Source of the DNA: a virus
Taxonomy: Duplodnaviria; Heunggongvirae; Uroviricota; Caudoviricetes
Reading direction: 5' to 3' (one strand)
DNA: 5,700 nt
IMG/VR virus record: IMGVR_UViG_2778261535_000007
Coordinates: 1 to 5,700 of that record
Part shown: positions 1 through 5,700 of the stretch, one piece after another
Layout: every line of letters begins with the position of its first letter
Numbering within the stretch: position 1 is the stretch's first letter
Notes under the pieces: generated by a model
The model's input: only the letters and a program-made list of their open reading frames with translations
What the model was told of the DNA's origin: nothing
The model's database searches: none
Translations under genes and position numbers: made by a program

Positions 1-1434
1 ATGCTGTCTTTAGAAGATAGATTAAAGTCATGTGGTACAATAGAATTGTATAATGAGAAAGCTAAACAACATAATGTAATAATAAAAAACACGGAGGATG
101 CATTAAAAAAAATAATTTCAAGAATCAACACCGCTCAAGAATTAGTATCTTCAATTGAAAATAATTTCAGTATATATCGTTCTAAAAAACAGGATAAAGG
201 AAAGAAAAAGAACGCCTTCGAGCGGTTGATGAACTCTATTAAGGTAGAAAAGGAATTATTTGTTGAGGAAGTGAAATATAATAATTTTCTAAAGGGTTTA
301 AATAAAGAATATGAAGAATTTTATAAGGCGGCTTATGATTTCAAAAGAACCAAAGAGTTGCAGATTCTTGCTGGAATAAATAATTCTATAGTGCATTATT
401 ATAATGAAATAAATAAACATGATGACGATAGCGAAAAATTGAACGATATATCGTTTGTTTATGTTGAGTCTTTGAAATCATATCGATTACAACTTGATAT
501 CAACGGTGTTCCGGCTGATGCTTTTGTTAGACTGTCCGAGGGACATCTTAAATCATTAGGGCTGGCAATACTTTTAGCATTGGCGAAAAAGAAACAATCT
601 CAATTTATTGTTTTCGATGATGTAGTTAATGCTATAGATACTGAGCATAGGTCTAATATAATTAATACATTCTTAACTGATCCGTATATTAAAAGAACAC
701 AAAAGATAATCACCACTCATGATAAATTGTTCTGGGAATTGTATAGCAATCGAGAAAAGAGTTTAGGTAATGGGGAGTTCTCAAGTTTTATTCTTGAGTG
801 CTATCCTCATGGAATTCATTTTGAGGAGCGCGATATTTCCTTTGAGGGAAAAATATCAGAAAGTTTAGAACACTATGATATTCGGCAGGCGCTTATTTAC
901 TGTCGTATCTGGTTTGAGTCATTAGCAACCGAACATTGTGTAGCGTCAGAATTAAGTCTTACAGCAAGTTTTACTAACAGGGATTATGTAAAGCCAAATT
1001 TACTTAAAGTTAGTTTGGAGAAAATGTACGCGGTACTTATTGGTTCTTTAGGCGATAGATTGGAAAATATTAATGAAATTAAAAATAATTTTTTGAGCTG
1101 GGGGATACAAAATCAGGAACACCATGCTTTTAGCGAAAATAACTATAATATAATTCATTCCAAGACTAGCCAGGAAATACAGGTTATATTTGATTCGATT
1201 AGGAAGTTTAAAATACAACTATCACCAACAGTTAGTCTTGTTAGTTTGACTGATCAACTTTTATCACTAAATGATAAAATAAATGCCATTGAAAATAGAA
1301 TTCAAAGTGCCAATCCTGCAGTTCCAGTGGATGTTATTCGAAAATGGAGTAATGATAAATCTAGATTAGTGAAAGAAAAAGAAAAAGTAGATGAGTTGAA
1401 GGTCTATTGTGAAAGCTGTATCCCTCAAGTTTAA
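1..1434 (+). CDS. ABC/SMC/RecF-like ATPase, C-terminal part (5'-partial at window edge), fused to an uncharacterised ~230-aa C-terminal domain; candidate anti-phage defence protein
   Basis: Uninterrupted 477-codon ORF ending in TAA at 1432..1434. It contains an ABC signature-like motif LSEGH (nt 532..546), a Walker B-like FIVFDD (nt 604..621), a D-loop-like AID, and an H-loop-like KIITTHD (nt ~703..723). No Walker A/P-loop lies N-terminal to these within the window, so the true start is probably upstream and the ATG at position 1 probably internal. The N-terminal ~170 aa are Lys/Glu-rich and helical-looking. GC is about 28-30% (counted on the first 60 nt), against >50% in the adjacent phage genes. 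Confidence 0.7.
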   Translation: MLSLEDRLKSCGTIELYNEKAKQHNVIIKNTEDALKKIISRINTAQELVSSIENNFSIYRSKKQDKGKKKNAFERLMNSIKVEKELFVEEVKYNNFLKGLNKEYEEFYKAAYDFKRTKELQILAGINNSIVHYYNEINKHDDDSEKLNDISFVYVESLKSYRLQLDINGVPADAFVRLSEGHLKSLGLAILLALAKKKQSQFIVFDDVVNAIDTEHRSNIINTFLTDPYIKRTQKIITTHDKLFWELYSNREKSLGNGEFSSFILECYPHGIHFEERDISFEGKISESLEHYDIRQALIYCRIWFESLATEHCVASELSLTASFTNRDYVKPNLLKVSLEKMYAVLIGSLGDRLENINEIKNNFLSWGIQNQEHHAFSENNYNIIHSKTSQEIQVIFDSIRKFKIQLSPTVSLVSLTDQLLSLNDKINAIENRIQSANPAVPVDVIRKWSNDKSRLVKEKEKVDELKVYCESCIPQV

Positions 1435-1444
1435 AATTAAAATC

Positions 1445-1465
1445 AAGCCCCGTTTTTCGGGGCTT
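1445..1465. terminator. Bidirectional intrinsic terminator hairpin between convergent genes
   Basis: Perfect 8-bp GC-rich stem AAGCCCCG (1445..1452) / CGGGGCTT (1458..1465) with a TTTTT loop. On the minus-strand transcript the stem is followed by GAUUUUAAUUUUA; on the plus-strand transcript by GGUUAUAUUAAUU. It lies 10 nt after the stop of the + gene (1432..1434) and 2 nt after the stop of the - gene (1468..1470). Confidence 0.6.
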
Positions 1466-1467
1466 GG

Positions 1468-1794
1468 TTATATTAATTGATTACTGAGTAGATCCAACGC
1501 AAGTTGTTTTTCTTCCGGCTTAAGTCGGTCAATCAGGAATTTAACCAGCTTGTTGCCGGTCAGCCCGCTGGGGCTGAGGGTATGTGAAAACTGGGCGTTA
1601 AAAACAAAGGTGTGGCCGCATTCAACTTCCGTGCAGGCGCAGTATAAATCAGCCAGTTTTTTGTCTTTCCAGTCAGATTTACGAATGATGGCCGGTGAGC
1701 CGCATTCAGGACATTTAATTTTAAAAACTCGCATGTTCACCATCCCGCACGCCATTGCTAACAATGGGGATGATTTTAACTTAACTGCGCTCAT
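1468..1794 (-). CDS. Ogr/Delta-family C4 zinc-finger protein (putative late-gene transcriptional activator)
   Basis: The protein carries C-P-E-C, then 22 residues, then C-X4-C (CPECGSPAIIRKSDWKDKKLADLYCACTEVECGHTF). This C-X2-C-X22-C-X4-C spacing, with a conserved Y before the third Cys and TF after the fourth, matches P2 Ogr / P4 Delta as I recall them. Its ATG (1794..1792) overlaps the portal stop codon (ATGA). The real start could instead be an internal Met (for example MRVFKIKCPECG), giving about 88 aa. Confidence 0.7.
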   Translation of the reverse strand: MSAVKLKSSPLLAMACGMVNMRVFKIKCPECGSPAIIRKSDWKDKKLADLYCACTEVECGHTFVFNAQFSHTLSPSGLTGNKLVKFLIDRLKPEEKQLALDLLSNQLI

Positions 1795-2852
1795 TTTTCG
1801 CCCTTTTCGGTGGTAATTGTCGGGATATCCACGTCAAAAACCAGGTGCAAGTGTGCGGGGATCTCCGGGTCATTGTTGACGCCGTTCATTAGCTTGCGCT
1901 GCAAGGGGATAACTTCATCCTTGCGATAGGTTGTGCGGGCGGTTTCAGGGTTTCCCATTACCGCGCCGTTGGTCGGGATGATACCCGCCAGGCCAGCGGG
2001 GAAACGGTGGGCGGTAAAGATATCCTGTGCGGTGATCCCTTTGATGTTGGCAAATTCATCCTTTGCGCTGACTTCGCCCACTGGCATGATTTTAACCCCT
2101 TCCGGGTCGCCCTTCGGGATGTTGATAAACATATTGCGGAAGTTACCCAGCCCTTTGGACTGGGCGATCTTCTCTTTGATTTCGTTTTCCATTTCCAGCG
2201 TCAGATTGGGATCGCTGGTATAGAGAATAAAGCCCATGTGCGCCCCGTTATTGTAGTAACGGCGCCGGAAGATGGTTGCCTCACTGTTGAGTAACACCGA
2301 ATGGATGCCGCCGATATAGTCAGGCAGGCCATATACCTGCTGGCGCGGGTCGTACATTTTAAAAAAGACGATGTCTTCCGGGTCATAGATAAGCGCTGGC
2401 CCTTCCTGCAGAACAGCAAACGACCCGTCTTTTCGGCAGCGCAGATACAGCGACGGCAGCGGCATCAGGTCGATCACTTCCCCGAATACGTTACGAATTT
2501 TCAGAATCGCGACGTCACCAAATAGCATGTAATCAAAGACAGCCTGTTCGACCAGGTCAGGTGTCAGGCCGCCGCCGATGTAGCCACCGGCCACCATATT
2601 GCGCCGCGCATACAGTACCCCGCCGTGCTGGCCGTTAAGGTTCGGCAACTGGGCCAGCGCCAGGCGATCAATCGGAAGTCGCCAGTGGTCATACTCATTG
2701 TCATACCAGATATTGTGATAATCCGTGCCGGTCGTCAGGATGGGTTCGGGTTCGCCAAATGTGATCACGCTTCCGCGCCCTGGCGTGAAGGTTTCAACCT
2801 TGTTGCCGATCATGGACCTGAATTTTTTATTATTACGCTGTTTCTTTGTCAT
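1791..2852 (-). CDS. Q: Phage portal protein, P2 gpQ-like
   Basis: 353-aa ORF with conserved P2-family portal blocks as recalled (YGLPDY...LLNSEATIFRRRYY.NG.H.GFI, KG.GNFRN.F...P, EVSAKD.F.NIK). It lies immediately downstream of and overlapping the terminase ATPase gene, the same P-then-Q order as in P2. Confidence 0.93.
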   Translation of the reverse strand: MTKKQRNNKKFRSMIGNKVETFTPGRGSVITFGEPEPILTTGTDYHNIWYDNEYDHWRLPIDRLALAQLPNLNGQHGGVLYARRNMVAGGYIGGGLTPDLVEQAVFDYMLFGDVAILKIRNVFGEVIDLMPLPSLYLRCRKDGSFAVLQEGPALIYDPEDIVFFKMYDPRQQVYGLPDYIGGIHSVLLNSEATIFRRRYYNNGAHMGFILYTSDPNLTLEMENEIKEKIAQSKGLGNFRNMFINIPKGDPEGVKIMPVGEVSAKDEFANIKGITAQDIFTAHRFPAGLAGIIPTNGAVMGNPETARTTYRKDEVIPLQRKLMNGVNNDPEIPAHLHLVFDVDIPTITTEKGEK

Positions 2853-4660
2853 GCTGCTTTCCCAAAATACCAGCCCGATGGGCGGTCATATTCGTGATCG
2901 ATAGGTTCGTTAATTATGGCGTGCGAGATAGCGAAGAAAACATCTGCATGGCCGGTCGCGTCTGAACGTTCGGCAACAAATGTCAGCGCGTTGCCGCTGT
3001 TGGTTGTTGTGCGTCGGATAGCCATAAAGCTGGCCGGAATTTCGACGCGCTCTTTGTTCGTTTCGTCTACGGCGTCTTTTGCCCATTCGATGCGTTTACG
3101 CTCGACAACGTCGATCATCTTCATTACCAGACGGTTTTTGCTTTCGACGCTGTAAAGAATGGGTGTGGCTTCGCGCGGTGCAAACTTGCTGACCAGGTCA
3201 TAAACGCCCTTACCTATGCCGGTTGTATCGATCCCGATGTAAGTGATGTTAAAGCGGCGCATAAGCAGCTTTATCTGGTCGGCCTGCCAGCTGAAGTTAA
3301 AGCCCTGCCATTGCCAGACGGCCAGCACGCGGAAGCGCTCGCCGTCCTCTATGGGGGGCGCGATTAACACAAAGGTGGAGTTGTCGCCGGATCGTGACGG
3401 GTCGAAGCCTGCCCATACTTCGCGATTGCCGAAGGGCCGCGCAGCGGTCAGATCAAAGTCGCCCCATGTGGCCCGGTCCACTTCACAGCCGACAAGCGCG
3501 GAGAACTTGAACACCGCGTCCTTACTGTCAACGAACTGGCACATGTAGAGCATGGCGAACGCGGTCGGGCTGTATTTGTTGCGCAGCCGTTCAATATCGA
3601 CAAGCGTACCGAGGCCACCTTCGATAGCGTCTTCCATCGTGATGATGTAGCGCCAGATCTGGTCCGGGCAGAGAATACCCTGGCCCATTTCGCTTTCTGT
3701 CGGGAACTCCACACCTTTGCGTTTCGGGTCGTCCCCGCGCCAGGCTTCGCCAGTCCAGACCGGGTAAGCCTGGTGCGTTTTCGCGCTGGGCGTCGAAAAG
3801 TAGGTCGTCCGGTATTTGTTATGCGTTGCCATTGCGCTGGCAACTTCGTGCAGGCGCGTGAATTTCGGGATCCAGAAAACCTCATCGCCATACAGGTGGC
3901 CGTTAAAGCCCTGTGCTGTGCTGGCGTTCGTGGACAAAAAGCGCAGTATTGCGCCGTTACTGAGGCGGATATTTTTACCCGTCAGCGTCACGCCGAAATG
4001 GTTCTGGGCGATCTGGACGATGTATTCGCGGAAGATTTCCGACTGGGATCGGCTTGCAGAGAAAAAGACCTGGTTATCACCGGTAATGACAGCATCTTCG
4101 AATGCTTCCCAGGCGAAATAATAGGTCATACCCACCTGGCGGCTTTTCAGAATGAAGCGCCAGTCTTCGCCTTTATGTTCGCGGCAGTGCAGCTGGTACT
4201 CGAAGAGATGTTCCCGCGCCCAGGTGTCGAGCATTTCCGCTGTAATACCGGAAACGTCGTTTTTCTTATACCGGCGCTTTCTTTCCCCAGGTTCCCCGCC
4301 TGCGCTGCTGAGGCAGTACCCTTCACCATCATAAGCCGCTTTCTGGGCCTGAATTTCTGCCAGCTTTTCGGCGTGCTTGTTGCGCTGCGCCATGAGTTTC
4401 ACATGGTGAGCAATCAGATCGCGCAGTTCTTCCAGTTCCAGCGCTGTTTTTTTCTCGCGGCGGGAGAGCTGGTCGATACGGCGGGCGATGACATTTTCCA
4501 CCGATTCAACAGGCAGCAGTGATGCCCACTTCCCGACGTCAGCCCAGTGGTAAATTGTACGCGGTGGAATATTCAGTTCCTGCGCAATATCTTTCGGCGT
4601 CCAGCTTTTTATATAAAGCGTGCGGGCCGCTTCTTTTAATTCATCGGAATATTTAGCCAT
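2849..4660 (-). CDS. P: Terminase ATPase (large) subunit, P2 gpP-like
   Basis: 603-aa ORF of typical size and position for P2 gpP, divergent from the scaffold gene. Its stop overlaps the portal start by 4 nt. The N-terminus looks helix-turn-helix-like (TPKDIAQELNIPPRTIYHW). Confidence 0.92.
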   Translation of the reverse strand: MAKYSDELKEAARTLYIKSWTPKDIAQELNIPPRTIYHWADVGKWASLLPVESVENVIARRIDQLSRREKKTALELEELRDLIAHHVKLMAQRNKHAEKLAEIQAQKAAYDGEGYCLSSAGGEPGERKRRYKKNDVSGITAEMLDTWAREHLFEYQLHCREHKGEDWRFILKSRQVGMTYYFAWEAFEDAVITGDNQVFFSASRSQSEIFREYIVQIAQNHFGVTLTGKNIRLSNGAILRFLSTNASTAQGFNGHLYGDEVFWIPKFTRLHEVASAMATHNKYRTTYFSTPSAKTHQAYPVWTGEAWRGDDPKRKGVEFPTESEMGQGILCPDQIWRYIITMEDAIEGGLGTLVDIERLRNKYSPTAFAMLYMCQFVDSKDAVFKFSALVGCEVDRATWGDFDLTAARPFGNREVWAGFDPSRSGDNSTFVLIAPPIEDGERFRVLAVWQWQGFNFSWQADQIKLLMRRFNITYIGIDTTGIGKGVYDLVSKFAPREATPILYSVESKNRLVMKMIDVVERKRIEWAKDAVDETNKERVEIPASFMAIRRTTTNSGNALTFVAERSDATGHADVFFAISHAIINEPIDHEYDRPSGWYFGKAA

Positions 4661-4837
4661 GCGGCTATTATGGCGGGATTATTTTGCGGAATTGATAATT
4701 AAATATCGGTAAAAGGTGGCTATTCAGTTATAACCGAATACATAAGAAATAAAGCGGTCGCGCTGTTTTAATCAATTCGCAATACTGACCACCACAAACG
4801 AATCATTGTTATTTAAATTTATTATTAAAGGTCAGTT
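4661..4837. promoter_or_regulatory. Divergent late-promoter region between the P-Q operon (leftward) and the O operon (rightward)
   Basis: 177-bp AT-rich intergenic region between two divergent start codons, at the position of the P and O late promoters in P2. It contains an imperfect Ogr-box-like dyad, TGT-N12-GCA, at 4764..4781 (consensus TGT-N12-ACA) and an AAAGG Shine-Dalgarno 6 nt before the ATG at 4838. No clean -35 is seen, which is expected for activator-dependent late promoters. Confidence 0.45.
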
Positions 4838-5700
4838 ATGCCGCAACCTCATTACCGCACGGATTGGCTATGTATTGCCACATCTGGACAGGCTGTGGAC
4901 GGTCGCACCATTGAACCGCAATGGTTGATTGATGCGGCAGAAACCTACACCCGCAAAACCTACACGGCCATGATTTGGCCGCACCATCCGCAATGCGATA
5001 TCAGCGAACGTGAATTTACCTGCAATCTGGGGGAAGTGGACGCGCTGAAAGTGGAAACGGAAGGTGATGTCACGAAGTTATATGCCCAGTTAATCCCGAA
5101 TCAATTTTTAATTGAAGCCAATCGGCAGGGGCAAAAGTTATTTACGTCAGCAGAATTTGTCACTGATTTTGCAGGCAGTGGTCGTGAATATCTTTTTGGG
5201 CTGGCTGTGACGGATATTCCGGCAAGTCTGGGAACGGAAAAACTTAAATTCGTTTTAGCCGGTGAAGAAAAGGACGCCGAGCGCGGGAGTCTGGAAACAT
5301 TCAGTTTAGGAAAATTACAGACAAGTAAACCGGATAAAAAAAATTCTTTCTGGTCGCGTTTATTTTCGGCCAGTAAAGATTTTACGCCAACCCCAGAGCC
5401 AAACACTGATAAGCCCACCGAGGGCGACGGAGAAAAAATGGAAGAATTAAAAGCGCTCATTCAGCAAATGCTGGATCTGCTTAAAAGCGGTAAAGACGCC
5501 GCAACGGGTGATGCTGACACGGTTGATACCCCGGAACAGGCCGCTGATGTGGTGGCAGATGTTGCCGCCCAGATCGCTGATGCGGCCGACGAGGTGGCTG
5601 AGCTGGCGCAGGACGTTATCGAAAACCCGGAAGACGAAGTCAAAGCGGAAGAATTCAGCGCCGCCAAAGCCAACCTGGCAAAAGTCATGAAGTCATTCAA
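4838..5700 (+). CDS. O: Capsid scaffolding protein, P2 gpO-like (3'-partial, runs off the window)
   Basis: ATG at 4838 preceded by an in-frame TAA (4826..4828) and an AAAGG SD. I translated the frame by hand and found no stop through 5700 (287 codons). It is absent from the ORF track apparently only because it has no stop in the window. The Ala/Asp/Glu-rich C-terminal part and its position divergent from P match gpO. Confidence 0.85.
   Translation, partial: MPQPHYRTDWLCIATSGQAVDGRTIEPQWLIDAAETYTRKTYTAMIWPHHPQCDISEREFTCNLGEVDALKVETEGDVTKLYAQLIPNQFLIEANRQGQKLFTSAEFVTDFAGSGREYLFGLAVTDIPASLGTEKLKFVLAGEEKDAERGSLETFSLGKLQTSKPDKKNSFWSRLFSASKDFTPTPEPNTDKPTEGDGEKMEELKALIQQMLDLLKSGKDAATGDADTVDTPEQAADVVADVAAQIADAADEVAELAQDVIENPEDEVKAEEFSAAKANLAKVMKSF

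Follow-up and report, generated by a model that had tools for sequence, protein, structure and literature searches.

What follows the ATPase head in the gene that enters the stretch of DNA analysed here, 5,700 nt of a tailed-phage genome (positions 1 to 5,700 of IMG/VR record IMGVR_UViG_2778261535_000007; hereafter the window), at its left edge? The encoded protein is related to the SMC and Rad50 ATPases, and an earlier note, made from the sequence alone, had described the approximately 230 residues behind its H-loop as an unrecognised domain that would act as effector or sensor of a defence protein. As detailed below, this tail contains a separate module whose core very probably adopts the HEPN fold. 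By analogy with described systems, it is probably the effector portion of an anti-phage protein made of one polypeptide, an RloC-like HEPN RNase whose gene is cargo of a P2-like prophage, in the hotspot between gpA and the portal gene. The effector reading is favoured because the invariance of its residues is active-site-like down to 19 % identity, and because architecture and genomic context are of the RloC type.

The listing of open reading frames (ORFs) for the window gives a plus-strand ORF of 477 residues and a stop, which represents the last 477 codons of a gene for a protein of about 940 residues; the remainder is cut off by the window edge.

1..1434, plus strand: 3′ part of the ATPase-HEPN gene, SMC/Rad50-like, from the ORF listing and from 82 % identity to residues 465–939 of an Erwinia protein

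The ATG at position 1 is an internal codon, aligning with residue 465 of an intact, 939-residue orthologue from Erwinia tasmaniensis (L004:7886-10705) that was found by scanning one genome per species. Approximately 464 N-terminal codons, covering an N-terminal extension, Walker A, most of the coiled coil and a CPxC zinc hook, lie to the left of the window. Residue numbers below are those of the window protein unless stated otherwise.

The portion of the ATPase head retained in the window carries the signature LSEGH (residues 178–182, nt 532–546), Walker B FIVFDD (residues 202–207, nt 604–621), the D-loop VVNAID and the H-loop TTHD (residues 238–241, nt 712–723). Residues S179, E180, G181, D206, D207 and H240 are invariant across the family, and, with the Walker A sequence NGGGKS present in the orthologues, all of the ABC head motifs (Walker A, signature, Walker B/D-loop and H-loop) are invariant. 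Pfam SMC_N matches residues 52–245 at a sub-threshold level, its profile still running at residue 245 (position 202 of 220), and family members match SMC_N, AAA_23, AAA_21 and AAA_15. When the full-length family profile is compared with the PDB, it matches the SMC3 and Rad50 heads and the Rad50 zinc-hook fragment 6zff.

532..723, plus strand: C-lobe motifs of the ABC/SMC ATPase head (signature, Walker B, D-loop, H-loop)
724..831, plus strand: helix completing the head (FWE motif) and beta hairpin, residues 242–277, from the AlphaFold2 model
832..1239, plus strand: all-helical core with the HEPN fold, residues 278–413 (about 135 residues), the predicted RNase effector
1225..1419, plus strand: antiparallel coiled-coil hairpin, residues 409–473, less conserved and absent in some members

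About 235 residues follow the H-loop. The earlier note could place no motif in them, and at the level of sequence this is borne out: residues 250–477, and equally the core at 278–413, return zero matches in Pfam, NCBIfam and PADLOC, and a profile of the tail region against PDB sequences yields coiled-coil noise only. Nor was any TOPRIM, HNH, PD-(D/E)xK or TIR family matched, as the note had also said; with the fold all-alpha, these four readings are rejected. An AlphaFold2 model of residues 242–477, built from a 29-sequence alignment with a predicted local distance difference test (pLDDT) score of 79, does, however, resolve what had been taken as a single domain of about 230 residues into three parts: a head-completing piece (242–277), an all-helical core (278–413) and a coiled-coil hairpin (409–473). 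The first part (helix at 2–13 and strands at 21–27 and 30–36 in model numbering) is predicted to finish the ATPase head rather than to belong to a new domain. The head takes up no more than about 30 residues past the H-loop, and the claim of a separate effector or sensor module, as opposed to an ATPase C-terminal lobe, stands because the helical domain folds independently, possesses invariant polar residues, and is followed by the hairpin.

The term unrecognised, by comparison, holds only for the sequence libraries, which are silent, as the tail has conserved motifs and a fold that can be recognised as HEPN. The modelled core is all-alpha, with the four-helix topology and the approximately 100–130 residues (inserts allowed) of that fold. 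Fold matches include the sacsin HEPN domain (3o10), 1wol, 1ufb and Csm6 (6tug, 8jbc, 5yjc), as well as HepT toxins (5yep, 8xdj, 7ae2), AbiA, Csx1, LsoA and HepS. Foldseek comparison of the same model with the PDB also places HEPN proteins first (HepT 6m6u, SsR10 2q00, MtlR, sacsin, Csm6 and TM0613). On these model-based grounds we regard a HEPN fold for the core as very likely, the call being well supported by one method and weakly by the other.

Across 35 full-length representatives, aligned down to 19 % identity, the residues that are invariant outside the ATPase motifs and zinc hook are D293, R295, R302, E306, N371 and H375, with K284, Y300, W367, Q372, N383 and E392 conserved in at least 90 %. 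The six invariant residues fall within two motifs.

877..918, plus strand: motif 1, residues 293–306, DIRQALIYCRIWFE, with D293, R295, R302 and E306 invariant
1099..1125, plus strand: motif 2, residues 367–375, WGIQNQEHH, with N371 and H375 invariant

Motif 1 (consensus D-I-R-Q-A-L-x-Y-C-R-I-W-F-E) lies in the long second helix, and is present in 60/60 genomic copies and conserved in a sister family of about 870 residues; taken together, the two motifs occur in 59–60 of the 60 copies. Motif 2 (consensus W-x-x-Q-N-Q-E-H-H) occupies a loop ahead of the last helices and, judged by sequence, appears to be the counterpart of the HEPN motif R-[NDH]-x-x-x-H (RNxxxH) with its arginine missing (Q370). 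Instead of Rx4-6H with a polar residue after the arginine, the family reads [Q/L/I]-N-Q-E-x-H. Five positions before the histidine, glutamine is found in 77 of 86 members and arginine in none; an arginine or lysine seven positions before it, directly after the tryptophan, is seen in 12 of the 86. Where HEPN proteins typically have a second conserved acidic residue upstream, as Ex3[KR], the long helix carries an invariant D293 and R302-x3-E306, the latter in reversed order. The resulting R302-x3-E306...H375 arrangement resembles the R-x3-E...H triad of PrrC and RloC, in which 36–52 residues separate glutamate and histidine and a serine often precedes the histidine, and which has been validated by mutagenesis for RloC (PMC2610378). 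In the family described here the residue before the histidine is H or N, not the serine frequent in RloC.

The register of motif 2 is clarified by the sister family, whose members are annotated as AAA family ATPases and align with 25 % identity over 767 residues (E 1e-42). They share the N-terminal extension, Walker A, a CPAC zinc hook and the ATPase motifs, along with an E-I-R-x-A-L-x-x-x-R-x-x-x-E helix and a W-x-x-x-N-x-x-x-H register, but lack the terminal hairpin and retain the canonical arginine, reading W-R-Y-L-N-K-G-T-H (Rx6H). That this Rx6H sits in the same register supports aligning H375 with the catalytic histidine. In a direct hhalign comparison of the two HEPN cores, no more than the R...R-x3-E helix can be aligned (E 0.021; probability 2 %), the profiles parting outside this first helix, and the result is too weak to provide independent support. 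The sister family is far more abundant, with 795 clusters (90 % identity, E ≤ 1e-5) against 55 for the family here, although the latter figure comes from a different search with clusters at 50 % identity. Its hosts include E. coli, Salmonella, Klebsiella and Proteus, amongst others, with examples at L071:4342-6951 (WP_102803754.1, on the Klebsiella variicola plasmid pNDM-IMP-2) and L072:2555-5224. It has no specific PADLOC model match, and has the look of an unnamed but widespread candidate for an ABC-HEPN defence system. In Klebsiella the sister gene adjoins a gene for an Mrr-type restriction endonuclease.

Several points weigh against reading the core as a HEPN RNase. With regard to fold, nothing in the Foldseek comparison with the PDB is significant (best E 0.58, probability about 0.7), the model is of moderate confidence (pLDDT 77), with its minimum (about 50) falling exactly at the NQEHH loop, no sequence profile ties the core to a named HEPN family, and a lenient scan of 29 members returns one weak DUF4145 match (1/29, E 0.0056). 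With regard to activity, the canonical Rx4-6H arginine is absent in approximately 86 % of members, such that the domain could be non-catalytic; the spacing from glutamate to histidine is 65–72; the clustering of the invariant residues in space is putative; and RNase activity, RNA target, trigger and dimer-based activation are all argued by analogy. Finally, the window protein has no match at E ≤ 1 to Pfam AAA_13 (PF13166), the model for RloC and PrrC.

The first of these points would be accommodated if the likeness to HEPN were a generic helical-bundle match, and the tail a family-specific lobe and coiled-coil dimerisation region with no effector. Given the four-helix topology, the HEPN proteins that head the structural comparisons and the invariant polar residues of the core, we deem this improbable. 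The missing arginine leads to another alternative, namely that the core, although HEPN in fold, lacks catalytic activity and serves as a sensor that binds RNA, nucleotides or DNA, or as a regulatory or dimerisation module, with defence coming from the SMC-like ATPase (e.g. by DNA trapping) or from a recruited host or unlinked nuclease. Non-catalytic HEPN domains, such as MtlR and those associated with nucleotidyltransferases, are documented (PMC3710099) and are amongst the fold matches, and the ATPase finds its best PADLOC likeness in LmuB, for which the effector is a protein of its own. Invariance down to 19 % identity, however, extends to six polar or charged residues, one histidine and two arginines among them; HEPN families without the motif arginine, but in which other basic residues are conserved, have been described as likely to remain active (PMC3710099); the PrrC/RloC triad also takes its arginine and glutamate from an upstream helix; and an all-against-all comparison of neighbours at 60 loci reveals no conserved partner gene, and hence no conserved effector nearby. 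A dead HEPN domain is therefore considered unlikely, if less so than a chance bundle match, whilst an active RNase is, by analogy, the probable state of this domain. That tRNA is its specific target is a more doubtful proposition, and one we would put at somewhat below even.

The hairpin that ends the protein is modelled with high confidence (pLDDT 93–97). The protein does end YCESCIPQV, as the earlier note had read it, and thus with a pair of cysteines that had been singled out.

1408..1419, plus strand: terminal CxxC, C470-x-x-C473, not conserved

This CxxC proves incidental, as it is found in 1/60 intact relatives and is missing even from those 84–87 % identical, and it is rejected as a zinc or metal site on that count. 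A single cysteine within the last 30 residues is present in 47/60 intact relatives.

In full-length members the order of elements is an N-terminal region of about 85 residues, Walker A, a long coiled coil with CPxC, the remaining head motifs and the C-terminal domain. The CPxC of the Rad50-like coiled coil (C374 and C377 in Erwinia numbering) is invariant in the 35-sequence alignment and present in 59/60 genomic copies. The region ahead of Walker A (residues 1–85 in Erwinia, L004:7886-8140) is kept in both the family and its sister family, and matches no Pfam, NCBIfam or PADLOC model. A profile of residues 242–413 run against 1.84 billion representative proteins recovers only 55 clusters (at 50 % identity), every full-length member of which is 876–986 residues long with the domain at approximately 705–875. 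The family is accordingly rare and of a single, fixed architecture, to which the domain is confined. The tail region is 33–50 % identical across Pseudomonas, Vibrio, Bacillales and Bacteroidota, and an intact ORF of 902–1056 residues is present in 58/62 genomic copies; because of this conservation, and the mostly intact ORFs, the region is real and under selection. Two copies (L001:6769-9611, in Pseudoduganella sp. R-34, and L003:7528-10355) are split by frameshifts at different positions (into 400+536 and 158+784 residues), and two others (L013 and L026) are shortened at the N-terminus. The frameshifted copies may be pseudogenes or assembly errors, and would fit the inactivation of a toxic gene.

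With this architecture, the family looks like a new relative, by design, of the RloC and PrrC tRNA nucleases, and is not unprecedented. The earlier note had expected any novelty to sit in the tail; the tail is indeed where the predicted effector is located, but its fold is recognisable and the architecture has clear precedents. RloC is, likewise, a single polypeptide in which a coiled coil bearing a CxxC zinc hook splits the ABC head, and which ends in a HEPN-type domain with R-x3-E followed by a histidine. It has no obligatory partner gene, and some copies reside in prophages. Some members of the family here are linked to type I restriction-modification loci, as in RloC and PrrC; such linkage is reported for a minority of RloC genes, and defines prrC and the restriction-linked rlo genes (PMC2610378). 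PrrC also combines an ABC ATPase with a C-terminal HEPN nuclease that has an Arg-Glu-His triad, and its gene lies between hsdS and hsdR, as does one copy of the family here (L044). Unlike the present proteins, PrrC has no coiled-coil/zinc-hook insert, is much smaller and is always linked to restriction-modification, whereas the family here mostly stands alone.

Could these proteins simply be true, but highly diverged, RloC orthologues, a known system missed by AAA_13? The head, the CxxC zinc-hook coiled coil, the C-terminal HEPN domain with R-x3-E...H, the occasional type I linkage and the prophage occurrence are all held in common, and the sister family scores 25–28 bits against AAA_13, which is sub-threshold (cut-off 36). 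Conversely, no tested member reaches AAA_13, neither ten full-length relatives at E ≤ 0.1 nor the Erwinia and Ewingella orthologues, and the ATPase instead scores best against SMC_N, AAA_23 and LmuB models. Length (about 940 residues here, and mostly 900–990 in the family, versus 658–897) and triad spacing (65–72 versus 36–52) exceed the published ranges (PMC2610378), the Ser-His of RloC is replaced by H-H, and some 85 residues at the N-terminus and a coiled-coil hairpin at the C-terminus are extra. Such an orthology is consequently judged a slim prospect.

A further precedent is provided by the APECO1_4465 group and ERFG_01251, which are ABC ATPases with a C-terminal HEPN domain from prophage islands, predicted to exclude superinfecting phages (Anantharaman et al. 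2013). ERFG_01251 differs, in a comparison made by description only, in being described with a classical MNT-type HEPN domain and its standard motif. Two 50-kb stretches of E. coli APEC O1 at 810–910 kb, a position guessed from the gi number, contain no prophage ATPase. The family here may, then, be a very diverged RloC, part of the APECO1_4465 prophage ABC-HEPN group or an independent fusion.

Amongst defence systems with PADLOC models, Lamassu is the closest, LmuB being the best match of the ATPase part, albeit weak (44–93 bits over head and coiled coil). Both have an SMC/Rad50-type head, a long coiled coil and a defence context. Lamassu, however, needs a separate LmuA effector as well as LmuC, neither of which is conserved near the family here at the 60 loci, whilst the effector here is fused in cis, and the LmuB scores are far below the level of family members. 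To our knowledge, no LmuA effector is of the HEPN type. The family is without a model in PADLOC 2.0.0. OLD and Gabija GajA were considered and rejected, there being no TOPRIM in Pfam or PADLOC and the tail fold being all-alpha; the GajA model gave a weak match, confined to the Walker A region in a single relative. DARNA (PD-T7-3), a HEPN tRNA nuclease activated by single-stranded DNA, provides a functional analogy only, as a single-protein abortive infection system in which a DNA cue activates a HEPN anticodon nuclease. It has an N-terminal HEPN domain with canonical Rx4H and no ATPase, is dodecameric, and is non-homologous outside of the HEPN fold.

These comparisons allow for a more speculative proposal, which we advance tentatively and hold to be less probable than not: that the family is an independent, unclassified lineage, in which a Lamassu/Rad50-like SMC ATPase captured a HEPN RNase in cis, convergently with RloC. 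Its arginine-less site would be composed of R302, E306 and R295 of helix 2 with N371 and H375, and the terminal hairpin would act as a latch coupling head engagement to nuclease pairing. If true, P2 hotspots and type I restriction-modification operons would harbour a new defence system that consists of a single gene.

For the favoured RloC-like HEPN RNase, a mechanism can be suggested. RloC's zinc hook and its DNA-dependent ATPase make up an intrinsic switch by which its nuclease is silenced or activated (PMC3458546), and the ATPase and zinc-hook module here would, by analogy, keep the HEPN domain silent. An infection-linked DNA cue, be it DNA ends, replication intermediates or restriction failure, would be sensed, and ATP-driven engagement of the heads would then activate the RNase, probably by pairing two HEPN domains. 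Since the active site of HEPN RNases is usually made by both halves of a dimer, activation would likely come about through engagement of the heads or through pairing mediated by the hook. The catalytic centre is envisaged as H375 and N371 of the xNxxxH loop together with R302, E306 and R295 of the preceding helix, these replacing the missing arginine. Cleavage of tRNA anticodon loops, or of other RNA, would stop translation and abort the infection.

The genomic setting of the window gene is that of a P2-type prophage, with which the following features of the window are associated.

1441..1469, no strand assigned: hairpin, rich in GC and with T runs on either strand, separating the convergent ATPase and ogr-like genes
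1468-1794, minus strand: Ogr/Delta zinc-finger regulator (Pfam Ogr_Delta, 2.6e-17)
1791-2852, minus strand: portal gpQ (Pfam Phage_portal, 4.6e-14)
2849-4660, minus strand: large terminase gpP (Pfam Terminase_6N/6C/Terminase_5)

The P2-type genes at 1468..4660 (minus strand) bound the hotspot, and a gpO-like scaffold gene starts at 4838 and runs past the right window edge. From its sequence, the hairpin at 1441–1469 looks like a terminator acting in both directions. Window and Erwinia prophage are collinear (78 % DNA identity), and in the latter the ATPase gene lies between an upstream gpA, the gene for replication (Pfam Phage_GPA, 3.6e-108), and the ogr, portal and terminase genes. The same gpA-to-portal placement is seen at L004, L005, L066 and L067, which include Ewingella americana and two IMG/VR viral contigs. 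This cos-proximal locus between gpA and gpQ is an anti-phage hotspot, corresponding to the old/tin locus in P2 (Rousset et al.; PMC9122126). GC content shows a sharp step, from 28–36 % in the ATPase gene (1–1450) to 50–60 % in the phage structural genes (1500–4700), as would fit cargo that the hotspot acquired recently. Neither 5,426 complete E. coli genomes, compared as DNA, nor 50,697 phage records, compared as DNA and as protein, contain a match to the ATPase gene.

Outside of the P2 hotspot, the family is found in islands of varying content, amongst integrases, helicases and other genes of the defence type. In a member of the Chitinophagaceae (L044) the gene is tightly packed in the order hsdM-hsdS-X-hsdR, and the same order is found at L062 with a Schlafen/AlbA_2 gene inserted. 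At L056 it lies between hsdM and hsdR, alongside an AAA_15 ATPase, and at L011 hsdR-hsdM-hsdS and a gene for a SpoIISA-like toxin lie just upstream of it. The defence-type genes in these type I loci are located at L011:6154-7113 (SpoIISA-like toxin), L056:4543-5862 (AAA_15 ATPase) and L062:10795-12447 (a Schlafen/AlbA_2 and HATPase_c_4 protein).

What had been an unannotated tail thus becomes a testable candidate, with R302, E306, N371 and H375 as predicted catalytic residues and Walker A/B and the CPxC hook as predicted switch residues, and the compact gene is well suited to experimental validation as a defence gene of the P2 hotspot. As the family is absent from both Pfam AAA_13 and PADLOC 2.0.0, defence annotation built on such models may well miss it. 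A sequence-unrelated group, and with it an abundant enterobacterial sister family, would be added to the RloC-type design, that of a Rad50-like ATPase which senses DNA and gates a HEPN RNase. The site also offers a natural case of a HEPN centre without the signature arginine, informative as to how HEPN catalysis is rebuilt or lost. Because both architecture and logic are already known from RloC and PrrC, the advance is incremental rather than conceptual.

A number of smaller observations concern the neighbouring genes. In the window, the Ogr/Delta gene is directly downstream of the portal gene, with a 4-nt overlap, and is not at the position of ogr in P2. Its listed ORF has about 26 residues before the Pfam domain, and the true start may be an internal methionine. 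Over this stretch, identity is 95 % with Salmonella phages SI7, SW5 and SW3, and 90 % with E. coli prophages, records that share no DNA with the ATPase gene. The P2 cos sequence was not found in any part of the window. At ten Pseudomonas loci, a conserved ORF of about 85 residues (e.g. L029:1778-2035; no Pfam match) lies just upstream of the family gene on the same strand, and could be a regulator or a clade-specific partner. Directly downstream of the frameshifted L003 copy, near TraI and ArdC genes, is a pair of genes (L003:10977-13877) for a Cap4_nuclease-domain protein of 376 residues and a 580-residue protein without a Pfam match, which may represent a Lamassu-like pair on an integrative conjugative element.

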